Of a DNA stretch of 64,000 nt, positions 2,921 through 48,000 are shown in pieces (positions within the stretch are counted from its first letter, which is position 1; each line of letters starts with the position of its first letter). Source of the stretch: Callorhinchus milii (Eukaryota); assembly GCF_018977255.1 (NCBI RefSeq), contig NW_024704742.1, positions 75,394,001 to 75,458,000 on the forward strand, written 5' to 3'. The notes under the pieces were generated by a model. That model searched no databases. It was not told where the DNA came from and worked only from the letters and a program-made list of their open reading frames with translations. The position numbers and the translations under genes are program-made.

Positions 2921-3282
2921 AATAATAATCCTTGCATTTGATATAGGGTTTTCACATCTTCAAGACATCACAAAGCGCTTCACAGAACATACTGTGAGGG
3001 ATTTGACTGTACACTTTGTGGGCAAAACGCAGCAGCCAATTGCGAACAGCAATGTCCCACAAACCATAATGGATTGAGTGACCAAATTATTTTTTTTAAA
3101 AAGGAATTATTACCCCTCGAAAAGCGATCCGCCAATCAACTAACAACCAGGTTCCTAGTTACTGCTAGGTAAACAGAGGCGTGTAGAGTAAGGAAACTTG
3201 ACCAACATTTCACCGTGCTGGGAATAAAACCCAGGTCTCTCGCTTGCAAGGCTAGTGCTCTAACCACTGAGCTGCAGGTCTC
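2921..3282 (-). mobile_element. tRNA-derived SINE, long form
   Basis: Same head and tail as the 1790 copy, plus a central gcctctgtttacctagcagtaa.taggaacc segment. Confidence 0.85.
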
Positions 3283-3959
3283 TTGTAATCTTGGGACGGC
3301 ACACTAGGCAATAGATAGTCTGTAGTGAAGAGAAATACATGTAGAATAGAGAAATCCATTGTTGTCATTAATATTAAATAGTTCAAGTAGTAATATTTCT
3401 GGAGAGATTAGTAGATTTTCATCAAAAAGTATGGATGTGTTGGGTCCAATAGCCTTTTCCTTTTAAAACAAATATAAATACTTTCTCTTCAAGTGTATTG
3501 GTGCAATGCTGGTATGAAGGATTGTAAAATATGTCATTAAGGACAAGGAAAATATTTTATGATCAAAATACCAGTCCTCTTTCCAGTAGAAAAATCAAAA
3601 GTACTTTTTACCTCCAGTGAAGCTTGCTTTCCTATATTACTTAGGATCTGCCTTTGCCATTTCTTGGGTCAGCAGTTATGTTAATGATTCTTTGGATGAA
3701 CCATTCCTTGGATGAGCACGGTTACATCCCAGAATGGTGCCACAGTTTAACAGACAGAACTATCCCTGGCCAATTAGAAGCCTGCCAAAAATGAAAATTG
3801 CAGTAACTAGTGCATTGTGAGATGAACAAAGAAATGTATCCTAACTGGTAATATCAAGATCGAGGAGTAAAAGAGAAAGGTCTTTTAAAGATGGCAGTAG
3901 ACAATTATACAAATGTTTCTGTAGAGGCATTAAATATACAAGTTATTGTTAAATATGTG

Positions 3960-6144: not shown

Positions 6145-6160
6145 TCATGCAATCACGTCA
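6145..6160 (-). CDS. HOOK3: HOOK3 alternative distal terminal exon, coding part: (S)DVIA*
   Basis: Acceptor ttctttctcttaatatgttttgttcttcatttgcag|T GAC GTG ATT GCA TGA; phase-compatible with the donor GCA AG|gtagaa at 10187/10186. Confidence 0.75.
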
Positions 6161-10182: not shown

Positions 10183-10323
10183 CTACCTTGCTGTAGCTGG
10201 TTGGACATGCCCAGGGTATGGTCGCCGTGTGCTTGTTGCTTGTCTCTGTCTCGCTAGGAAAGATTGTCCTGAACCAGTACTAGCAAGTCTGTCTTCTGCT
10301 GCTTTCTTATGAAGAGCCATTCC
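10183..10323 (-). CDS. HOOK3: HOOK3 exon 22, coding part: GMALHKKAAEDRLASTGSGQSFLARQRQATSTRRPYPGHVQPATAR*
   Basis: tctag|GGA...GCA AGG TAG; conserved SFLARQRQAT motif. Confidence 0.97.
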   Translation of the reverse strand, partial: GMALHKKAAEDRLASTGSGQSFLARQRQATSTRRPYPGHVQPATAR

Positions 10324-23590: not shown

Positions 23591-23764
23591 GTAAATTCAT
23601 CACTATGTGCTATACTGTCATGACCCTTTATTTTGCCTTAAACAGGAATTGCATGTGATTATTGTACAAATATTGTAACAAGGGAGTGTAAATAATGAGT
23701 TTCTTTAAATGAAAAGTGATGAAAAATTAGTTTCTGGATTAATTTAAAAATTAAGAAAACTTAC

Positions 23765-23847
23765 AGCTATTGTTATATTTTGGCTCCAAATCGTCAATGT
23801 AAGCTCGCTTCTTCTGAAGTTCAGTGTGAGCTTCGTGCAGTTTTTCC
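23765..23847 (-). CDS. HOOK3: HOOK3 exon 18 (83 nt): EKLHEAHTELQKKRAYIDDLEPKYNNS
   Basis: ttcag|G GAA...AGC T|gtaagt. Confidence 0.95.
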
Positions 23848-25324
23848 CTGAAATAGCCAAATACAATGTTATAACTCTTAAAACATTAAAAAGTGGAATT
23901 AATGGAAAGACAATTTCTACTAATTTGTGGTATTCATGAATACTTAAGGAAAATACTATTTTAGAAGCTTGTCCTGAAATCTCTCAAATCACCAGTTGTG
24001 CATTTCGACATGGCATTTACTTTAAATAAGGTTATCTCACAAATGCTGAAGCATAATCAAAGATTGCGTGTGGGGTGGGGAGGGGGGGAAGAGAAAGAGA
24101 GAAATGGATCATAGTAATGAAAAATTTATATTTTTGATATTGTGATTATCTTCTCAATTTTTGATCAAGAAAGCAGATCAAATTGCTTGAAATCAATCCC
24201 AAGAAATTGATACAATTAGATTTTTCCCCCTGCAAGATGCTTTAAAGATTAAAGAAGCACATATTGAATCTTAGATCAGACATAGATGGTAGTGCAGTTG
24301 CTTGACATGGGGAAACCTTACCAAGGGAAGTAATCCATTTTTCTTTTTCACACGTTATTCTCAATATATCAAAAACATTCTCATGCAACAGTGCTCTAGA
24401 AGTGGGGATTCTTAGACCTGCATTCAGCAGCAATCTTCCAAATGGAACAACCTGTTCTCTTTCTCTGACAAATCCAAACAATAGTGTTTAATAAAAAAAG
24501 GTGTTAATTATCAACTTTAAAAATATTATCAAAGAACTCTTTACAAAATCATTGGCATATTGAGCTTTTATCAGCCAAGCTCCCAAAGCACCCCCACAAA
24601 TACAAATGAAAGAAGGGTGCATATTTTATTGGATTGAATGTTTCTGTGATAGATGTATATTCACGGGTTTATAATGTCTCAGAACTTATTACAATATGCA
24701 GGGTAAGGAATAAAGTATCCACCAAAGCAGTGTTCACTATCAGTCTAGACTATGTACTATAAAGTCCTGTATGATTCTCAAACACATAACCAAATAAAAA
24801 GCATTTCTGAAACTAAATTTTCCCACAGATCCAAGGAACACCATACCAATAATGGGCTTAAAACACTGATGTGCAATCTGGATTTGCCTGCAGAAATTTA
24901 CCCAGAAAGATATTGCATCAGTTTGGAGTTCCTGTGGGCTGACGTGTCACATGTTCAGTTACTGGCAGGAGTCAATATTTACAAATTCAGAACATCACTT
25001 TCACTTTTTGATTTCAATGCGAGTCTCATGATCTGTTCAGGATTTGCCAATATCAATAGGGCTGAAATGAATCTCACTTCCTACAACTAAGTTTGCTTAA
25101 TTCACCATATAATTTAATCACGATTGTGTTATACTTCCAAGTTAGTAAGTTCATTGTGGTGGTAAAAGGGATGGTCTTTCAAGGAAGAGAAGGAGATACA
25201 GAAACAACTGCTTTTACATGATGGACAAAGCTTTCCCACTAGTTTTAATTAAAATAAACTTGCTGCCTAGACTCTGAAGTTCTGATCACCCTTCCACATT
25301 TATTTTTTTGTTTCTGGATTGTTT

Positions 25325-25794
25325 ACCCTGACCAAACTCTGTACACCCAACTCACCAGTTCTAGCCAGGGTCCACTGGCTTCCCATCACCGAACGGATCG
25401 ACTTCAAGATCCTCACACTCTTATTCAAATCCATTCACTCCCTGGCACCTCCCTACCTCTCTGAACTCCTCACTCCCCAATCCACCACCTGGCGCTTCCA
25501 ATCGACTGGCACCAGCCTCCTGCTCATCCCTCGCACCTTCCGCTCCACCATTGGAGGTCCATTGGACATTGCGCTTTCAGCCACTACCCCCCGAAATTCT
25601 GGAACACTCTCCCTCAATCCCTCCGCCTTGCCCCTTCTCTCCCTTTTTCAAGTCCTGCCTGAAAACCTTCCTTTTCGACCATGCTTACGGCCACCTTTCC
25701 ACCACCCCCCCAGTTCAGTCAGGCTCTGCCACTGTTAAGCGCTCTGAGAGACTACCCTGCATGGAGGGCGCTATATAAGTGCAAGTTGTTGTTG
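25325..25794 (+). mobile_element. L2 LINE 3' end
   Basis: HWLPITERIDFKILTL..LAPPYLSELL; tail plus (TTG)n. Confidence 0.85.
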
Positions 25795-25862
25795 AGCGCT
25801 TATTTGTTGTGTTCCTGTTTGTGCTCTGCGTTGAAGGTGGTGGTAGAGGTTTCTCCCAGGAG

Positions 25863-26549
25863 TAACATCCGCGCCATGACCAGCACTGCCTACCACCACC
25901 ACCTCTGCAATATTGCCAGATTCCGTCACCCCTCAGGCTGCCGAAACCCTCACCCACGCATTCGTCACATCAAGGCTCGATTACGGGAACGCCCTCCTCA
26001 ACGGCCTTCCCAACTCTTCCCTTCACAAGCTGCAGGTCATCCAAAACTCTGCAGCTCGTGTCCTCTCACGCACCAGGCTCTGCGACCCCATCACTCCCAC
26101 CCTCGCCTGACTCCACTGGCTCCCCATCCCCCAGAGGATCGAGTTCAAGATCCTCGTCCTCACCTTTAAAACCATCCATAGCCTTAACCCCTCCTACCTC
26201 TCTGACCTGTTGACTCCCTACCAACCTGCTCACTCCCTCCGTTCATCAGACTCCGGTCTGCTCCATGTCTACCGCCCAACCATCGGTGGCCAGGCTTTCA
26301 GCCTCTCTGCCCCCACACTCTGGAACTCCATCCCATGGTCCCTTCACCTCGCTTCCTCCCTTACCTCCTTCAAGGCCGGTCTCAAGACCCTTCTCTTCGA
26401 CTGTGCCTTTGGTCTCCCTCCCACCCCTCACCCCTACACCACCCCTCCCCCATGCCTCCCCCATCTTGGGTCCTGACCCCTGACTGTCCAGCGCCTTGGG
26501 ATGTCATCCTAACGTGAAAGGCGCTCTATAAATGTAATTTTGTTGTTGG
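25863..26549 (+). mobile_element. L2 LINE 3' end
   Basis: AETLTHAFVTSRLDYGNALL..LQVIQNSAARVL; tail plus (TTG)n. Confidence 0.9.
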
Positions 26550-27331
26550 GTCAGGATACAATACAGACTTTTCGCATATGGGTGTTTGTTCAAACCCAGG
26601 CTAGATACACTGGAGTGAAAGTGTGTGCCCTCTCACTGCCAATTATAAAGCTTCTAAATGAAAGGAGTTTGGGGAGTGTCAATTCAGTTCTACAAGGATA
26701 CAGTTGGAAAACGTTTATGAAAAATTATTTTGGAAAGACTTACATGAATAAGTGAGTGATGGCAAGAGTGTTTTAAAACACTGGTTTCAAATTAATTACT
26801 GAGTTGTTAAATTGGATTTGAGCACATCCATAAACATACCACTCTCAGCACACCCACCATGAAAGTGACTCAGTAACTTGGATGAAAAATCTAGTTAAAT
26901 CTGTTTACTTGCTTTCATTGTTCGTATCTCACCAGCCACACAAATGTTTGGGGTAAGAATAGGCAGAAGTGAAGTAAATGAAGTAAACTCCATGAAGTAA
27001 ATTCAAATCCCTTCATGGAGCAAACGTATAGCCCCTCTGTATTGCCAAACCCTTAGTTTTAGAAAATTTCCTGGCCTGCAACATTCCTGCATAAGGAATG
27101 AAGGAATTTTGAGGTACACCGCGTTCCATGAGACACAGCATTTTGTTTGTGATAGGAGATGTCTTCCAAAGTGGGGGTGGGGGGCAACTTTTGCAATGGG
27201 TGTTCAGTATGACTATTTTTGTTTATGGTCAAGACGATGGAAACTGTACAATTTAGGAACAATCCAACAATCCAGGTCAGTTGTAGGTTCATAAAAATAG
27301 CGTGTATGGTAAATTTAAAAAAATTACTTAC

Positions 27332-27366
27332 AAGTGTTCTTCCAGTTTCTTCTTCAGAAGCATTGA
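27332..27366 (-). CDS. HOOK3: HOOK3 exon 17 (35 nt): SMLLKKKLEEH(L)
   Basis: ttttttcag|TCA...CAC TT|gtaagt. Confidence 0.94.
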
Positions 27367-27577
27367 CTGAAAAAAAAGTGTAAAGTTCATTCAAAATGTA
27401 AAGCTAAGTTGTAGAGGCATCAAGTTTCCAAAACAATTCAATAGATGTATAGCAAACCAATTGATCAATTATTAATTAACTTCAGGGATTCATTGATATT
27501 TCTAAATATGTGTTTGATATTACCAAAAAGTTAGTAGATACTGCTTTAAAATGCTATTTAAATAAAACCATACTCAC

Positions 27578-27583
27578 AATAGC
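27578..27583 (-). CDS. HOOK3: HOOK3 6-nt alternative microexon (Ala-Ile) between exons 16 and 17
   Basis: Minus strand reads tactaat(branch)...tctctatttcttcgcaTGCtatcTGCtatag|GCTATT|gtgagta; phase 0, frame-preserving. Confidence 0.85.
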
Positions 27584-27804
27584 CTATAGCAGATAGCATG
27601 CGAAGAAATAGAGATCATATATTAGTATGAAGCAAAAATAGCAGCGAACAGTTGAAACTGTAATGTTTAGCAATGTTGAACAGAAAAGTTTAATTCATTT
27701 AGTTTCTGACACATGCATGCTTGATTGGCATCAAGAGCACTTTCATCATGTCTCCTGATTATTCATATGCATTTCATTATATATATAGCAATTTCAAATA
27801 CATT

Positions 27805-28910
27805 CAACAACTTGCACTTATATAGTGCCCTCCACGGAGGGCAGCGTCTCAACAGTACTTAACAATGGTGGAGCCGGACTCCAAGTGGGGGAGGGGGTGG
27901 GAGGTGACATCACCAAGAGGGAGGTTGAGGAGTTTAGATCCGTAACAGAAGGTTTTAAGGCAGGACTTGAAAAAGAGGAGGGGGCAAGGCGGAGGGATTG
28001 CAGGAGAGTGTTCCAAAGTTTCAGGGTGTAGTGGCTGAAAGCTCGACCTCCAATGGTGGAGTGGAGGATGCGAGGGACAAGCAGGAGGCCAGTGCCAGTC
28101 AAGCGGAGGTGCCGGGTGGTGGATTGTGGGGTGAGGAGGTCAGAGAAGTAGGGAGGTGCCAGGGAGTGAATGGATTTGAACACGAGTGTGAGGATCGTTC
28201 GCCCACAAATATACAGTTCACTTTAGTCTATTCTGTGAAGCGCTTTAAGACGTCTAGAAGATGTGAAAAGCGCTATATCAAATGCAAGGATTATTATTAT
28301 TATCTTGAAGTCGATCCATTTGATGATGGGGAGCCAATGGAGCCTGGCCAGAACTAGTGAGATGGGGGTACGGAGTTTGGCCCAGGTAAGTACGCAGGCG
28401 GCAGAGCTCTGAATGAGCTGGATTTTTTGATTAGTGAAGCTGGGGAGATCGGCGAGGAGCGCGTTTGAATAATCCAGGCGGGAGGTGCCAAGCACATGCA
28501 CAACAGTTTTGGCTGCATTTGGGGTAAGGTCGGAGGGGGTCAATGTGGTGAAGGTGAAGGAAGGCAGTCCTGGTCAGGGACCAGGTGTGGGGGAGGAAGG
28601 ACAGCTGGGGGGTTCAAATGGATGCTTGAATTGCGCACTGGTTCGATGAGTCTGAGGGGGAGCCCAGGGAGCTTGAGGAGTTTAGATCCGTAGGAGTGAA
28701 GACGTTGACAGGAACCAAAGAGTATGGCTTTCCCCTTCTCCACATTCAGCTACAGGAAGTTTGCACTCATCCAAGCCCTGATGTTTGCCAGAGAAGCTAA
28801 ATAGAACATCGGCAGACCTAGAGTTGATATTGGAGGAGACGAAGTAAATTTGGCTGCAGATGACATCACCAAGAGGGAATAAATAGATAAGGAAAAGAAG
28901 GGGCCAAGGA
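27805..28910 (-). mobile_element. L2 LINE 3' portion containing a nested SINE tail
   Basis: TSRLDYSNALL, LHWLPI, LAPPYFSDLL; tail at the 27805 end. Confidence 0.85.
28196..28303 (+). mobile_element. 5'-truncated SINE (3' tail) nested in an L2
   Basis: Interrupts the L2 sequence gtgtgaggat^cttgaagtcgatcc; ends in (TTA)n. Confidence 0.88.
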
Positions 28911-30394
28911 TGGAGAAGGGGGCCCAGGATGGACAATATAAACAGTTTTCTGCTTCCAGACTAAAACACAAATGGTATGACAGCAAGGAAATAATAATAA
29001 TTCTCTTGTTTGATATAGCACCTTATCAGATAAATGGGTTTCCATTTCTGATTATACACCATGTGCTGACGATTCTGTTTCTGGTTTTTATTCTAAGTCC
29101 CAAAGTATAAATAACAATTCTTGTATATGATAAAATGGACCATCACATCATCAAAATCTCTCAATTAAAGACAGAAAGGGAAAACAGGAAAATATACAAT
29201 TTACATATCAAAAATATGGCCTTGTCTTAGAATCTAGCCTTGTCATAAAATGTAATCTTCTCTGAAGATTAATTATTATTTACAATCTGTCATTATTAAG
29301 GCTATTAAACACAGCTGTGGAAAACTATTTGAATTTTCTTCCATCTTATCATTCCAAGGCTCAGCCCTGCTTCTTTCACACAGAATAGCATCTGGAGTGC
29401 TGTCTTACAGTAGCACATATACCACTCTTCTACGAAGAAACCTTAATAATCAAGGTCCAAGGTGAAAATATAAGCAATGTAAATTTCTTTGAATAATCAA
29501 GTCAAGTACTAATATGCTAGATAGTTAAATGGAACATGTTAATACTAAAAGGCCGTTTTAGACAGAGTTCCACAGTACAGAAATTTAAATTAAAAATCAA
29601 ACTAAATATCAGAACAGGTGCCACTTCTAATTCCTTGCCTTGAAAACCCCACTACAGCCACCTTCCCCCGCCCTGCTTGAAACTCTTCGAGAGGATCTCC
29701 TAAAGTTAAATACACTATACAAATGTAAATGTTGTATGATGAGACAGAGTCTGAACTCCTGAAAAAATAAAACAAAATAAAGAATAAACCACCTAACTTT
29801 ACAAATTTTCCTCAATGACCAGTGACTGATCACCTTTAAAGGTGATTGAAGATCACATATGAAAAAGCTCAAGGCATATATTTTGCCACGATTAATTAAA
29901 AGAGAAATGAAAGACCACCACAGGATAATTAGCCATAGAACAAGAAGGATGATCTCTTTTTAAAAAAGCTAAAGCTATAAATAGATAATCTTATAAAAAG
30001 CTTCTAATTTAAATTGTTTTGTCAACATACTTTAATACCTACTGAATATTAAATTCAATGACCTATGATCTATGAATAAAAAAACATATTGTACTTATGG
30101 AAAAATAATAAAACCATGGAACAGCATTATTTTGAACATTCAGAGAGAAAATATTACTTGGTGCACGTGCATGAAAACTGTGCAATAGGAGTGCACAGCC
30201 AGCTGGAGCACACTAAAATAAATAAAATGGCCAATTTTCAGGTGACTGGTCACTGCCAATGTCACTTCTCATTCCCTGTGCATATGCAAACAGTCAGTTT
30301 TTGTATGAGAAGCTATGAATGGGTAACTTCTGGGTTAAATTTGCAGGGTTTCTGATAATTTGATGTGTTAACAACTATAGAAATAGCGATTAAT

Positions 30395-30800
30395 AATCAC
30401 TGAATTTTTGCATTTGGTATAGCACCTTCAGGTCAGCTGGACGCCGTAAAGTGCAGAATATACTGTGAAGTGGAGTGACTGTATTTGTGGGTGAGACGCA
30501 GCTGCCAAGTTGTCCACAGCAATGTTCCACAAACAGCCAGGAATAGAATGATCAATTTTACTTGAGGACTGTTGGCCGGGACACTGGGACAAACTCTCTT
30601 CTCTTTTCGCCATGGGATCTTTAACGTCCACTTGAACGGGCAGACGGAACTTTCGTTGTTAACCCCTCATCTGAAGAATGGCAGCTCTGACGATGGAACC
30701 CCCTTCCCCAGTACAGTGCCAGATTAGACTATGTGAATTCAGGTCCAAAATGGGGCTTGAACCCACAACCTTCTGACTCAGAGGCGAGAGTGGCACCAGA
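30395..30800 (-). mobile_element. older Deu-domain-type SINE
   Basis: ggggcttgaacccacaaccttctgactcagaggcgagag head; gccatgggatctttaacgtccacttgaac core. Confidence 0.75.
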
Positions 30801-31028
30801 GGCAGACACACGGTTTAACTTTCTATTGTATTATAACATTATTAGTATTGACATACAACAGACATTGTTTAACACTAAATAACCCATGGGGGAAGAACAC
30901 CCCTCCAACTTCTAGAGTATAGTTTCACCTCTTTCCGTTTTCAGACTGCAGAACTATAAATTCAAGCAAACATTCAGCAAAGTTGAAATGAATGTTAGAA
31001 CACTTCTAACACTCCAGGTTGCACTCAC

Positions 31029-31116
31029 ATCTTCTGCTCTTGAACCCTGATCTTGTAATGCCTTCTGAAGTTCTTCAACCTGAGACTGGATTTCCAAGAC
31101 CCTCTGATTGGCTAGC
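31029..31116 (-). CDS. HOOK3: HOOK3 exon 16 (88 nt): LANQRVLEIQSQVEELQKALQDQGSRAED
   Basis: aaaag|G CTA...GAT|gtgagt. Confidence 0.95.
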
Positions 31117-31272
31117 CTTTTAACAAGAATTGAAAATAAACTTTATTAAGTTATTTGTTCAGGTGTCACAACCATCCTATGCTTTGCCACTCTGGTTCAT
31201 ATTCCCCTTCACTTCCTAGCCTTCTTTGCTTCACCCTCGTTTCCACTGTTCTAACCCACACGCATTAATTTC

Positions 31273-32725
31273 CACATAACATGTAGGAGCAGGAGTAGGC
31301 CATTCGACCCTTCGATCCTGCCCCGCCATTCAATCATGGCTGATCTTCTAATCTAACTCCAGCTAATAACCTGACCCTGCCTTATCCCCATATCCCTTAA
31401 TCCCTTTAGCAATACGAAATATACCTATCTCAGTCTTGAATATGTTCAAGGACTGAGCGTCAACAGCCCTTTGGGGTAGCGAGTTCCATACATTCACCAC
31501 CCTTTGAGTGAAGAAGTTCTTCCTCAACTCAGTGTGAAAGGGCTGGCCTCTGATTTTAAGGTTGTGACCCCTGGTTTTAGTTTCTCCAACCAGGGGAAAC
31601 AATCTCCCACTATCTACTCTATCATGCCCTTTGATCATCTTATAGGTTTCTATAAGATCCCCTCTAATTCTTCTATATTCTAGAGAATATAGGCCCAAAT
31701 TGGTCAGCCTATCCTCGTAACTCATCCCCTTCATCCCTGGTACTAACCTAGTAAATCTACACTGCACCCCCTCCAAGGCAAGTACATCCTTCCTTAAATA
31801 AGGAGACCAAAACTGCACACAGTATTCCAGGTGTGGTCTCACCAGGGCCCTATACAGTTGCAGCAAGACTTCCCTACTCTTATACTCTAATCCTTTCATA
31901 ATGAATGTTAACATACCGTTCGCCTTCCTAATTGCTGCTGCACCTGCAGACTAACTTTCTGTGATTGGTGTACAAGGACACCCAAGTCCCTTCTTAAAAA
32001 ATAACCCGCTCTACTGTTTTTGCTACCTAGGTGGATGACTTCGCACTTCCCTACATTATACTTCATCTGCCACCTACCTGCCCAATCACCTAACCTATCT
32101 ATGTCTCGCTGCATTTTTTTAATGTCATCCTCTGTGTTGACACTTCCTCCTAGTTTTGTGTCATCCACGAATTTAGATATATTAACTTTGATGTCCTCAT
32201 CAAGATCGTTGATGTAGATGGTAAATAGCTGAGGCCCAAGGACTGATCCTTGTAGCACTCCACTAGTCACATCCCGCCAATCAGAAAAGGACCCGTTTAT
32301 CCCTACTGATTGTTTCCTACCCGTTAACCATTCCCCAATCCACGTTAATATGCTCCCCCAATTCTATGGGTCCTTATCTTTTAGACTAACCTTTTATGCG
32401 GCACCTTATCAAATGCCTTCTGGAAGTCCAAATAGACCACATCCACTGATTCACCCTTATCTAGTTTACTCGAAATATCCTCAAAAAACTCTATGAGATT
32501 TGTCAAAATCTCCCTTTTGTAAAGCCATGTTGACTTGGCCTAATTATATTGTGCTCCCCTAAATACCACAGCACCACATCCTTAATCAACGATTCTAAAA
32601 ATTTTCCTATCACTAATGTGAGACTAACTGGCCTGTAGTTCCCCAACCTTTCCACCTTTTTTAAATAGTGATGTGACATTTGCGATCTTCCAATCCATGG
32701 GGACTGTTCCAGAATCCAAGGAAGG
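31273..32725 (-). mobile_element. CR1 LINE, 5'-truncated, RT and C-terminal region, with frameshifts and deletions
   Basis: NYRPVSLT, SQHGFTKGR, SGVLQGSVLGPQLF, KFVDDTKLGG, LYRALVRPHLEYCVQFWSP, FFTQRVVNVWNSLP. Confidence 0.95.
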
Positions 32726-33352
32726 TTCTTCATCTCTTCCCATCATTACTCATGGCCTTATCCTCCTTATGTGTGTGTGTTTTTTTAAATATCTTCCCTT
32801 CTGCTCTCCACCACACTGATCTCTCAAACGAGATGTTCAAACTAAAGCTCACTTTTCAATTACATAAACAAAAAATATGCATAGCATAGAAAACCAGCAA
32901 CACACCTAGCCACATTCTACCGTATAATCAATGTGTTTCTCTATATTAGGTCTATTACCTTTTCAAGATAGTCAAGAGATATGTGAGAGGAGAATTCTGA
33001 AAGAGTGATAATCAATTTCAGGGAGTCAACAAACAATGGGGAGAACATGGCAGTTCAATGCCCTGATCTCATCATTAGAAAATTGATATCAATAATCAGA
33101 AGCAACATGGAAGATTACCTGCATGAAAATAACTTAATAAATGACAGCCAATATGGCTTTAGATCTTGCTGACCATTTATTCCAAATTAATGATGGGAAG
33201 CCATATGCTATTATGCCATGAAATGTTTTATTTGGTAAACTTAATAGCTAATGTGCATCATTTAAATCCATTACCTACTGTGCAAACCCTAAGTAGATTA
33301 GAAAAATGATCCACATCACAGCAAAGCAGTTGAAAACTGGAATGTTTCATAC

Positions 33353-33493
33353 CTATTCTCAGTCTCCAATTCACTCTTTCTTCTGTTGGCGTCTTCCAGT
33401 AGGCTTTGCAGCAGGGCTATCTTTTCATTATCAGATCCCTCCTGGTTTATCTTCAGCATCTTATTTTCATGCTGCAGCCGGATAAGCTTTTCC
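33353..33493 (-). CDS. HOOK3: HOOK3 exon 15 (141 nt): EKLIRLQHENKMLKINQEGSDNEKIALLQSLLEDANRRKSELETEN(R)
   Basis: tctag|G GAA...AAT AG|gtatga; inside ORF 33316..33579. Confidence 0.97.
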
Positions 33494-34249
33494 CTAGAGC
33501 AAGAATAGGAAAGAGCTAGCAAACTGCACTGCAAAAATAGACAGCAAACTATGGAGAATATTAAGTAGGTTTTTAACACCAGGAAAGAAGAGTAGAAGAG
33601 AGAAAAAAAATTGGGAATAAGAATAAAAAGGCTCCTCCAGCATAAATAACAGGTAGAATGGAAACAATCTTAAAACAAAGTAAAGGGGATTATGAGAATA
33701 AGAGACCTAAAAGAGAAAATGAGATTATGATCGCAGGAAACATAACACACAATTTGAAAGGGTTTTATAAATCAAGCACTGAGATGTTACCCTGCATGAG
33801 GTGCGCTATATAAATACAAGTTGTTGTTGTGTATATTCAATGCTTTTGTAAATATATTCATAGCAAACAGGATGTAGGATTGCTAAAGTATCCTGATAGG
33901 GAAAATCAGAGCTGCAGAACAACTGGTCACAAATTAGCAACCAACAACAACTTGTACCCTGGGGAAGCTGAAGGAGGGCAGAAATGAGGGGAAGTCAATA
34001 CAATACAGTTTTAAGAGGATTTTGAAAGCATGGTTTTATTGGGGTGAATGAGTTAATGTCTGGCATACAACTGGTCAGGACAACAATAGTCCTAGATTAA
34101 AGTTGAGAACCACAGAAGAGATTGGTGACATTGACATACATGTGGAAACTGACAAAGTGATTCTGGTATCATCAAAAATATCTATCAGCCTATTATTTGA
34201 TTAATGCACATTATTCTTAGTTTGGATGGAAATTAGATCTTTTACTTAC

Positions 34250-45000: not shown

Positions 45001-48000
45001 GATAGATCAATGCTAAAAAATTCATACAAAGCAATATTAGATGTGTATATAATTGCTGAAAATGGGCAGAACTATTTAACCATTTAATTATTGCACCAGA
45101 CAGCTCTGATTTCAAGTTATACATAGATTGTTATGTACAAATGAAGTACAACAACATCATGGCTCTCTTCCCACCCCCCCCCCCCTTTTAATTATAGTCA
45201 ATTCACTTCCTTTCAAAGCATTATGAATAATTAGAACAGCCACTCCCATGTAATTTTTTTGATAACAATAAGGGAAAAATAGACAACCAAAGCTGAGATT
45301 GGTTAGATAACCCAGATGGTGGATGTTAATACATTATTTGAGCCTGATGATATGACTGTTAAAAAGATAAATAATAGATTTACCCATTCTTCTAGTTCAA
45401 TACACTCTAATCTCTGTCTAGCTGTCACATCTTGAAAAAGGTGTGCCTTCAAAACAAGGCAAAGTGAAAGAGATGTTAAAATTTCATCACAAACAGCAGG
45501 ATTCAGAAAAGAAAAAAAGCAATGGTGTCAGGTCAGTGATAGAATGTAGAAGATACAGAGATAAATTTTGCAAATACAAAGCTTTCTAGGTGTACACTAT
45601 TGTTCTGACACCTAGGGAAAATATGGTTTGTGAACAGACTTTCAGTATGATCTACTTAACAAAATGAAAACAGTAATATACATCAGTTAACAATGTTGCA
45701 TTGATTGGATAATAACTGGTTGAGATCACCCCAAATTCTGGAATTTTCCTTGCCTATAGCTATCTCCTTGCTGGGGAATGATTTTTTTTTAAACCAACTA
45801 AGGATGAGAGAAGAGAGGAAAAACTCAGGATCTAACCCTTATCATGATTTCTTTCAATAACAAAGGCACTATATTACCACAGGTGATTTTCTTCTACCCA
45901 GAGGCAGCATTGGTGAATGTTGATTTGAATTCTATTCCCTCAGACAGAGCTCATCATATTGTTTCAGTTTTTGTGACAAGGCTAGGCTCATACACTATGC
46001 ATACAGGGCACAGCGTAAAATGTCTAAGGCTAGAAAATACCATTAAGCAACAATATTTTCTTTTTTCTACAAATGGGCGAATCCACAAACTGCACATTCA
46101 GGCATTGCAGCCATTTTGATCTGAAATGTCTCTTCAATACATTGCAATACAAAGATGATAAAATAATTTGTATTCATGTATTACCTCTGGTTAAACTCCT
46201 AGTTTCCAATAAAGTTGATGCCACCATTTTGTTTGTGACGCAAATTAGCTTGTGAGTCCCAAAATAAAGCAGCCTCCTCTCGCATGGCATATTTACACAT
46301 CATCTCATTTGGAGCCTTAACTTTGTTTTGTTTTTTAACCCAGAGATGGCCAAAGGGCAACTCCAGAACTGCTGAAACTGATGAATAATAAATTGATGGG
46401 ACTGCAAAGGGGCTTTGTATGTGAATGTTGAACTTCAGTTAAGATTGAGGAAGACCACACCTAAAAGATAGGTAATCTGGCATTCTTTCATCCTCTATCT
46501 TTTAAATAGGACCTATCCTTATAAACAAACCAAAGAACCTGGCATCCTGAACTGTTACAAAGCCAGGAAACATTTAGAAAATCATGCTCACCACTCCGAT
46601 TGGCTGCCTTGAAGATGGCTTGGAGAGGAAACCTTCTGCACTGAAATTCCCTGAAAACCATGAGCTCAAACAACCTTAGTCAAGGGGAGGAAGTCCATCA
46701 CCATCACTTGTAGTTCACAAACTGTTCATATTGAAATAAGTTAAAAACTACTTTGTTGTAAAATGATTGAAATTTATAGAAATTTACAGGTTAAAAATGT
46801 TGCGACACGATCTTGCCTACAACCAATGTGCACTCTTCAAACACTGCTCCACATGGAAATGCTGAAACCTCTTCATCTAAAAGCATCTGGATGTAGAGAA
46901 AGATATCTCACACCCCATTGCACTAAAGTGGCAATTAAGTCCAAAAATAAAACTGGATAATTTGGTGTTCAATAGCTTCACAGTGTAGGCTTTCCTGGAA
47001 ACCAGAAGATTAAATCCCTGGGTGGTAGAATCCACAATCCTCTAAACAGGTCCGTTTACTTTCAGGAAAGGATTTATTGTATCCTTTCTAACCAACCATG
47101 GGTGCTCCAAGCAAGCGATTCTAATGGGACTGTCAATGCTGAGCATCTTGAGATCCACAGAAATTTATAACACAGAAGGCCATTCAGCTCATTATGCCTG
47201 TGGCTCTCAGTAAGCAGAAACCATTTAGGCCCATTCTTCTGCCTTTTCTCCAAAAGAATCACAATATAAGAATAAAGTCTTCCATGGGAAGAAAGGTAGT
47301 GGCCATCATTTCCTCTAAGGAATCATTTGAATAATCCATGACTGGATACTAGGAAAAGTACAAGAAAGAGTTTCATATAACTTGTTTCATGAGGAAATCA
47401 ACTGAATACAGAAACTCACATTTAGAAACGGAGCCTGAAGAAATTGCTTCTAAACAAATGCTTTAAACGTTCTAATGTTATGTAAGCAATGTGAACGTGG
47501 GAGTGGAACAAGTAAGAAAAAATAGATTAAGTGCTGGTAGGATTGCAGCTGATAGAATGACAACTTGCATTTATATAGTGCTGAGAGATGCTATGCTGTG
47601 TAAAGATCTCTATATAAATGTAAGATTTGACATTGGGAAAAGCTCTGACTTGCAACTGTCATTTACGAAGAAAAGTTTCACATGAGTTCAGAGATAAAAT
47701 GGTGATTTTTGAGGAAGTTTGAGAAAATGCTTTTGTTTTATCTGGAAGTTTTGAAGTAGAATTTTAAAAAAATGTCTTGCTCCTTCTCCATTTATCATGA
47801 TCCTCTATCCTGTCGTTCTTCCCAAACATAAATTGTCACGAACTCAATTATCTTATTTACTGAAACAGCCTTCCCTGGTAATTTATTCTATTTGATCATT
47901 GCCTTTTGAGTTAAATTAGTCTATCTGAAATTCATATTCAATCATTTTTAAATTTGATCTTCCTAGTTTTCAATCACAAACAATTTGGCCAGATTATTAT

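Follow-up and report, generated by a model that had tools for sequence, protein, structure and literature searches.

We analyzed a 64,000-nucleotide (nt) stretch of the Callorhinchus milii (elephant shark) genome – NCBI RefSeq assembly GCF_018977255.1, contig NW_024704742.1, positions 75,394,001 to 75,458,000 of the forward strand, hereafter the window – that carries exons of HOOK3 on its minus strand. Our subject is a 6-nt microexon within this gene, which the initial annotation, made from the letters alone, had described as a hidden Ala-Ile cassette with the regulatory signature of SRRM3/4-dependent neural microexons. Fifteen exons of C. milii HOOK3 isoform X1 (P0007) map to the minus strand at 92–100% identity, from ~59.9 kb to 10.2 kb, with the first exons of the gene outside the window. 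Seven C. milii HOOK3 entries match a neighbouring 46-residue exon (33492-33355) at 100% identity. The host gene is the C. milii HOOK3 orthologue.

A 6-nt alternative exon in C. milii HOOK3

The microexon, GCT ATT, falls within the 3-27 nt size class and lies between two exons of the gene. The upstream exon ends in GCAGAAGAT (SRAED), in the context ...LANQRVLEIQSQVEELQKALQDQGSRAED, and is followed by the donor gtgagt at 31028-31023; the downstream exon starts with TCAATGCTT (SMLLKKK) and has its own donor, GTAAGT, at 27331-27326. Because the host intron is phase 0, inclusion of the 6 nt gives SRAED-AI-SMLLKKK and keeps the reading frame. The TACTAAT sequence, the tract, both TGC motifs, the AG/GCTATT/GTGAGTA core, and the TGCATG hexamer all stand where the initial annotation had placed them (Table 1), and the putative branch-point A, at 27622, is 38 nt from the 3' splice site with no AG in between. 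A GCATG at 27601-27597 overlaps the distal TGC.

For evidence from RNA, we compared window positions 23700-33550 with Logan contigs of four small C. milii runs, here called runs X1 to X4. No run is recorded as RNA, the records of all ten small runs say only ‘RNA? (a guess)’, and we took the runs as cDNA solely because their contigs are without introns: in all four sets the introns 23848-27331 and 31117-33352 are removed, so the contigs represent spliced RNA. The contig joints agree with the exon boundaries, one (23846/7 to 27331/2, ‘cut +1’) with the 35-nt downstream exon and two others (31115/6 to 33352/3 and 27366 to 31029) with the ends of the upstream exon.

Run X1 yielded a single junction contig (depth 283.8) that links 27366 to 31028 via AATAG. 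Together with the C at 31028, these letters read AATAGC, the reverse complement of GCTATT, and run X1 therefore includes the microexon. Each of the other runs has one contig that links 27366 straight to 31029, at depths of 112.7 (X2), 127.8 (X3), and 84.9 (X4). For X4 the direct joint is confirmed by the record coordinates, since 3264 to 3301 holds 36 letters – the 35-nt exon plus one ambiguous base – and six more do not fit; for X2 and X3 it is read from the joint row alone, and contigs of this kind demonstrate presence, not absence. The X1 contig contains GCTATT between the flanking exons, the Ala-Ile cassette is genuine, and the microexon is alternatively used in C. milii RNA.

The spliced contigs do not stem from a processed pseudogene, an origin that we considered and ruled out. 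In a copy search covering the 991.5-Mb C. milii assembly, exon 15 has one locus at 100% identity, and its sole other match is a paralogue at 70%. Elsewhere in this assembly, contig C8:12439200-12439896 holds a HOOK-like stretch in which residues 214-330 and 606-711 of HOOK3 are matched at ~50% identity over a span of 700 bases. This stretch is no near-identical copy of HOOK3 and may be a HOOK-related one that is poor in introns or rearranged.

The exon is neither hidden nor new. The NCBI entry ‘protein Hook homolog 3 isoform X1 [Callorhinchus milii]’ (P0007, 740 amino acids) already reads AED-AI-SMLLKKK (AEDAISMLLKKK; ...QDQGSRAEDAISMLLKKK...), and counterparts in human and mouse have event identifiers in the style of VastDB/vast-tools. 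Since the microexon is present both in the C. milii gene model and in published human and mouse target lists, it has to be regarded as already known.

Table 1. Features of the HOOK3 microexon region and of its HOOK2 counterpart. Coordinates are those of the window unless a contig is named.
Feature	Position	Strand	Basis
Upstream constitutive HOOK3 exon, 88 nt	31116-31029	minus	100% tblastn match, P0007 residues 527-556
TGCATG, RBFOX-type hexamer	27717-27712, ~130 nt upstream of microexon	minus	sequence
Candidate branch point TACTAAT	27627-27621	minus	consensus match only
Pyrimidine-rich tract tctctatttcttc	27614-27602 (-31 to -19 from 3' splice site)	minus	sequence
Distal TGC (UGC)	27598-27596 (-15..-13)	minus	sequence, between tract and AG
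Proximal TGC (UGC)	27591-27589 (-8..-6)	minus	sequence, between tract and AG
Microexon 3' splice site AG	27585-27584	minus	sequence and RNA contig
6-nt microexon GCTATT (Ala-Ile), alternatively included	27583-27578	minus	RNA contig and NCBI model
Microexon 5' splice site GTGAGTA	27577-27571	minus	sequence; GTAAGTA in HOOK2 paralogue
Downstream intron, 211 nt	27577-27367 (part beyond donor 27570-27367)	minus	sequence
Downstream exon, 35 nt, SMLLKKKLEEH plus 2 nt of Leu	27366-27332	minus	tblastn and RNA joint
HOOK2 microexon GCCATT (Ala-Ile), 6 nt	L033:1385-1390 = contig C29 ~2043284-2043289	minus	sequence

Conservation and age of the insert

The insert falls after residue 540 in the 718-residue forms of HOOK3. 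Among the first 120 proteins listed in our initial search, 49 fit the junction pattern: 38 with no insert, 7 with AI, and 4 with VS. A second search, seeded with an AI-bearing Galeopterus protein and scored on the junction region – a design that enriches AI forms – brought the sample to 201 HOOK3-type proteins of at least 300 amino acids. The junction has no insert in 134 of these 201 and AI in 33; the others carry VS (6), AV (1, Polypterus), VSRN (1), or long read-throughs (2), and 24 did not fit the pattern, Clupea forms reading ADD-AI-AIMLKKK among them. The 33 of 201 is not a frequency, because the query itself bore AI and 90%-identity clusters hide most isoforms.

Forms with AI span cartilaginous fishes (whale shark, thorny skate, and chimaera), a clupeid (Alosa), frogs (Xenopus, Rana, Nanorana, and Pelodytes), squamates (Sceloporus, Crotalus, and Pseudonaja), turtles (Chrysemys and Mauremys), birds (Gallus, Corvus, Falco, Tyto, and Nestor), and mammals. 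The mammals are Trachypithecus together with Rhinopithecus, Pipistrellus, Puma, and Galeopterus, the last four being examples of species with the AEDAISVLL isoform that the initial annotation had mentioned for other vertebrates. The two-residue insert is deeply conserved among vertebrates.

A different splicing variant affects the same region: mammalian isoforms P0108-P0111 lack the exons on either side of the microexon (ELETENR-EKLHEANN, a loss of 41 residues, or 88 + 35 nt). Skipping of both flanking exons is in line with the FullCO field of the mouse event in Table S2 of PubMed Central (PMC) article PMC8797185, where alternative donors are given upstream and alternative acceptors downstream.

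Two lines of sequence evidence bear on the age of the switch. The first emerged from a search of cluster representatives, in which one protein, 719 residues long, turned out to have PI at the junction. Its cluster includes two proteins of sea lamprey (Petromyzon marinus), where ‘Hook homolog 3-like’ isoforms X1 (719 amino acids) and X2 (717 amino acids), with identifiers P0381 and P0379, are identical but for a Pro-Ile that separates ...ARATD from SIVLTKK. A protein derived from Logan data (P0229) carries the insert. A hagfish protein (P0250) reads ASD-SISLTKK, which equals the lamprey skipped form and is evidence neither way.

The second line comes from the HOOK2 paralogue, whose alignment we used as a stand-in for a cross-vertebrate alignment of the orthologous intron. 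The homologous intron of C. milii HOOK2 (contig C29) reads ...ctctctctttccccc...tcTGCaatAG/GCCATT/GTAAGTAT, with a 6-nt Ala-Ile microexon, a TGC at -8..-6 as in HOOK3, and the donor GTAAGT. NCBI isoforms X1 (710 amino acids) and X2 (708 amino acids) of C. milii HOOK2 differ solely by AI at residues 530-531. When the two loci are aligned, 21 of 24 bases are identical – TCTGC(T/A)ATAGGC(T/C)ATTGT(G/A)AGTAT – and the flanks do not align. The conserved unit is therefore the proximal UGC, the AG, the exon, and the donor. We found no AI-like candidate in the homologous 770-nt intron of a third paralogue (contig C5).

On these sequences, the HOOK3 switch predates jawed vertebrates, and an origin before both the HOOK2/HOOK3 duplication and the lamprey-gnathostome split is well supported. 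The initial annotation had dated the switch to early jawed vertebrates should the species prove to be a chondrichthyan. The species is one, as C. milii, and the proposed date is too young, given Pro-Ile in lamprey and AI in HOOK2. What is new here is a modest addition: lamprey and HOOK2 push the origin back before the HOOK2/HOOK3 split, and the conserved unit is a 24-nt core with one UGC.

The HOOK3 locus has other optional parts. An optional exon at ~45380-45440 (minus strand; ...HLFQDVTARQRLECIELEEW...), between exons at ~50.5 kb and 41.2 kb, is used in C. milii isoform X1, and length gaps of ~21 residues between isoforms of many species (for example 718 versus 740, 721 versus 742) suggest a second conserved cassette. 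There is also an alternative C-terminus at 10183-10189 (minus strand), where the last coding exon either ends in ...PATAR-stop or splices at GCAAG/GTAGAA to a small exon ~4 kb downstream (~6145-6159, minus strand; ...SDVIA-stop), as in isoform X1. The introns are rich in interspersed repeats and reverse-transcriptase-like open frames (27805-28465, 25300-26500, 30600-32600, and others); an ~110-nt unit near 28196-28304 recurs at least 10 times in the window, and in the RNA-derived contig sets the word depth of these intron parts ranges from tens of thousands up to ~200,000.

Regulation of the microexon and competing explanations

The original work on SRRM4/SRRM3-dependent neural microexons is that of Raj in 2014 and of Gonatopoulos-Pournatzis in 2018, and VastDB appears to cover the elephant shark. 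For the human exon, the supplement of Head et al. 2021 (PLoS Biol, PMC7935315) gives event HsaEX0030349 (HOOK3, chr8:43000271-43000276, length 6) a percent spliced in (PSI) of 35.9 with GFP and 88.8 with SRRM4. We took supplementary file 7 of that paper as its S4 Data (314 exons raised by SRRM4 in HEK293 cells), judging from columns and legends. For mouse, Table S2 (sheet Mmus) of Torres-Mendez et al. 2022 (Sci Adv, PMC8797185) lists Hook3 MmuEX0023183 and Hook2 MmuEX0023175, each 6 nt, as MIC in the group eMICdep, which was based on Srrm3/4 double knockdown in N2A cells and on Srrm4 knockout hippocampus and cortex. By orthology to an SRRM4-responsive human event and an eMIC-dependent mouse event, the SRRM3/4-type assignment made in the initial annotation is upheld.

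The splice signals of the C. milii exon can be compared with a general description. Neural microexons, according to PMC12871342, have UGC motifs within the stretch that runs from the branch point up to the 3' splice site, a pyrimidine content that peaks 15-30 nt upstream, and a predicted branch-point distance with a human median of 45 nt, versus 34 nt for other exons. The shark exon appears to fit this description: the tract spans -31..-19, UGC stands at -15 and at -8, and the branch point, a consensus match only, lies at -38. The hallmark of eMIC microexons, a UGC between the pyrimidine tract and the AG of the 3' splice site, is present in two copies.

We regard it as likely that the microexon is the C. 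milii orthologue of the known 6-nt HOOK3 microexon (HsaEX0030349, MmuEX0023183), a frame-preserving Ala-Ile cassette between ...AED and S(M/V/I)LLKKK, with SRRM3/4-type regulation inferred in the shark. Where SRRM3 or SRRM4 is produced, this protein would use its eMIC domain to engage the UGC motifs between the displaced pyrimidine tract and the AG and would aid early recognition of the 3' splice site of an exon whose length does not allow exon definition; inclusion would then be completed by the strong donor, GTGAGT. Cells without SRRM3 or SRRM4 would mostly skip the exon. That the shark exon depends on SRRM3/4 is a prediction from this orthology.

Several points weigh against the orthology or against its regulatory part. 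The human exon is not strictly neural, with a PSI of 36 in control HEK293 cells and, in supplementary file 6 of PMC7935315, of 10 (breast) and 15.6 (kidney) in normal tissue. HsaEX0030349 has 0 occurrences in the tables examined of PMC8797185, and HOOK3 was not found in the supplementary tables of PMC7821500, PMC12626424, and PMC12868881 or in the first 12 of 18 files of PMC9303857. We equated the human and mouse events on gene name, 6-nt length, and mammalian AI isoforms. In C. milii, inclusion is seen in one of four contig sets only, and the tissues of the runs are unlabelled. Finally, the bare microexon motif is not rarer than expected: the 64-kb window has a single YAG-N6-GTRAGT versus 1.72 expected by chance, and the motif is present at least once in 84 of 100 shuffles.

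A fuller motif ranking is suggestive only: among 21 minus-strand YAG-(3 to 27 nt)-GTRAGT candidates in the window, two TGC in the last 20 nt occur only at the HOOK3 microexon, whose pyrimidine content (0.73) is joint highest, and this favours a genuine exon. It is the RNA contigs and the conservation, rather than motif statistics, that establish the microexon as genuine. The TGCATG hexamer, which the initial annotation had read as an RBFOX signature, fares worse. It occurs 37 times in the window versus 47.6 expected, no more than chance, and it lies upstream, where RBFOX sites tend to repress; with this position and no enrichment of the hexamer in the window, the exon does not resemble an RBFOX-activated one. 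No GCATG was found in the 211-nt downstream intron. We give TGCATG no weight.

Of the competing explanations, the one that survives best accepts the exon as real and alternative and proposes that in the shark it is set mainly by PTBP-type repression on the CU-rich tract, by RBFOX or NOVA, or that it is broadly partial, rather than an SRRM3/4-driven neural switch. The tract tctctatttcttc presumably resembles a PTBP-binding sequence. This explanation can also draw on the GCATG that overlaps the distal UGC, on the four C. milii runs being without tissue labels, and on baseline non-neural inclusion of the human exon (36 in HEK293 controls, 10 to 16 in normal breast and kidney; PMC7935315). Against it, SRRM4 alone lifts the human exon by 53 PSI points (PMC7935315), the mouse Hook3 and Hook2 events are both eMIC-dependent in the table of PMC8797185, and the proximal UGC keeps the same position in two paralogues without other alignable intron sequence. 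We judge this explanation unlikely.

An alternative with far less to recommend it is that the extra six bases are a 6-nt extension of the upstream exon (GTGAGT, Val-Ser, followed by a GC donor) rather than a separate microexon. The window does offer GTGAGT at 31028-31023 and GC at 31022-31021 (minus strand), and AED-VS-S... is present in 6 of the 201 proteins, namely two Ensembl-derived C. milii entries (P0005, P0006), two from Cetorhinus, and one each from Aquila and Bubo, the remaining identifiers of this set being P0059, P0063, P0136, and P0137. Yet the letters AATAG + C of the X1 contig are the reverse complement of GCTATT and not ACTCAC, no 27366-to-31023 joint is among the joints listed, and NCBI C. 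milii isoform X1 reads AI rather than VS. We rejected the Val-Ser alternative donor on the X1 contig and the NCBI isoform, and hold that an upstream extension is highly improbable. In the VS gene models (Ensembl-derived for C. milii, Aquila, and Bubo; NCBI for Cetorhinus), an aligner has probably misplaced the microexon bases as an extension of the upstream exon; they are a useful warning for the annotation of very short exons.

A chance splice-like intron motif that is never used, for which the expected count of 1.72 would allow, is already refuted and has next to no probability left: the exon is included in an RNA-derived contig and annotated in C. milii, and the two-residue insert is kept from lamprey to mammals as well as in HOOK2.

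Predicted effect on HOOK3 and comparison with known systems

The published structural work gives the insert a position within the protein. In PMC12152161, HOOK3 has a Hook domain (1-160) and coiled coils at 160-239, 240-440, and 480-665; residues 553-624 are described in a crystal structure, and the interface with KIF1C lies at 607-622. PMC11996680 places FTS/FHIP contacts at 663-718 and describes a folded-back, autoinhibited state with cross-links from coiled coil 2 (CC2) to CC3 and CC4. On this numbering, the insert would lie in coiled coil 3, with the dynein-activating part on its N-terminal side and the KIF1C and FTS/FHIP sites on the other.

The initial annotation had raised the possibility of a shift in coiled-coil register. 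We estimated hydrophobic phase with a simple 3.5-residue periodicity calculation for C. milii and for a primate pair (P0154 / P0121). In the three windows nearest the junction, the upstream phase is 19-36 degrees in C. milii and 7-36 degrees in the primate pair. Downstream it is 338-354 degrees (C. milii) and 337-348 degrees (primate pair) in the skipped form, and 181-196 and 173-194 degrees, respectively, in the included form. From these values, a single register would run through the weak DQGSRAED stretch when the exon is skipped and would be broken by two residues (~206 degrees) when it is included. The calculation agrees with the suggested shift, in that the two halves are out of register when the insert is present. 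The inserted residues may thus shift the heptad phase in coiled coil 3, with a bend, a rotation, or a mere lengthening of a hinge all conceivable.

A bolder reading combines age and effect. The HOOK microexon, older than HOOK3 itself through an origin before the HOOK2/HOOK3 duplication and the lamprey split, may owe its persistence over some half a billion years to a role as register or hinge switch in CC3, turning the KIF1C- and FTS/FHIP-binding end by ~200 degrees relative to the dynein-activating end and so retuning fold-back autoinhibition or motor coupling in neurons. We offer this reading only tentatively; we found no paper that addresses its functional part. Nor, among the publications searched and listed, did we find one whose text discusses the HOOK3 microexon, its SRRM4 link, or either event identifier: PMC9109281 has HOOK3 and microexons as incidental mentions only, PMC4176328 names HOOK3 for an edited GT-AA intron, unrelated to the microexon, and PMC4370497 reports HOOK exons without alternative splicing, as data not shown. 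The consequence of two extra residues for HOOK3 seems not to have been addressed by anyone. In neurons, a change in autoinhibition or in motor coupling could be tested for, because the structural work cited above puts the site inside coiled coil 3 of an autoinhibited adaptor, between its dynein-activating and KIF1C/FHF-binding parts.

The discovery value of the exon itself is small, as it is annotated and its mammalian counterparts stand in SRRM4/eMIC lists; the comparison with known systems shows how closely it matches them. The NCBI C. milii HOOK3 X1 model contains the identical exon, in a model that also uses two further optional exons. The lamprey Hook homolog 3-like protein shares a two-residue alternative insert at the identical junction, which is Pro-Ile rather than the Ala-Ile of C. 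milii and is seen here at the protein level. Human HsaEX0030349 is likewise a 6-nt, SRRM4-responsive event of HOOK3, and mammalian isoforms have AI at the AED/S junction, whereas its response was measured in human cells and its position is equated with that of the shark exon via those isoforms. In mouse, Hook3 and Hook2 each have a 6-nt microexon, and these are the two paralogues with AI microexons in C. milii; the introns around mouse Hook3 differ in length, with ~2.3 kb upstream and ~1.6 kb downstream (FullCO) versus 3.4 kb and 211 nt in C. milii. For eMIC neural microexons in general, SRRM3/4 dependence and neural enrichment are properties that the shark exon may share. With that class, the shark exon has in common a size within 3-27 nt, a preserved frame, two UGC between tract and AG, a tract at -31..-19, a strong donor, and deep conservation, and its candidate branch point lies at -38.

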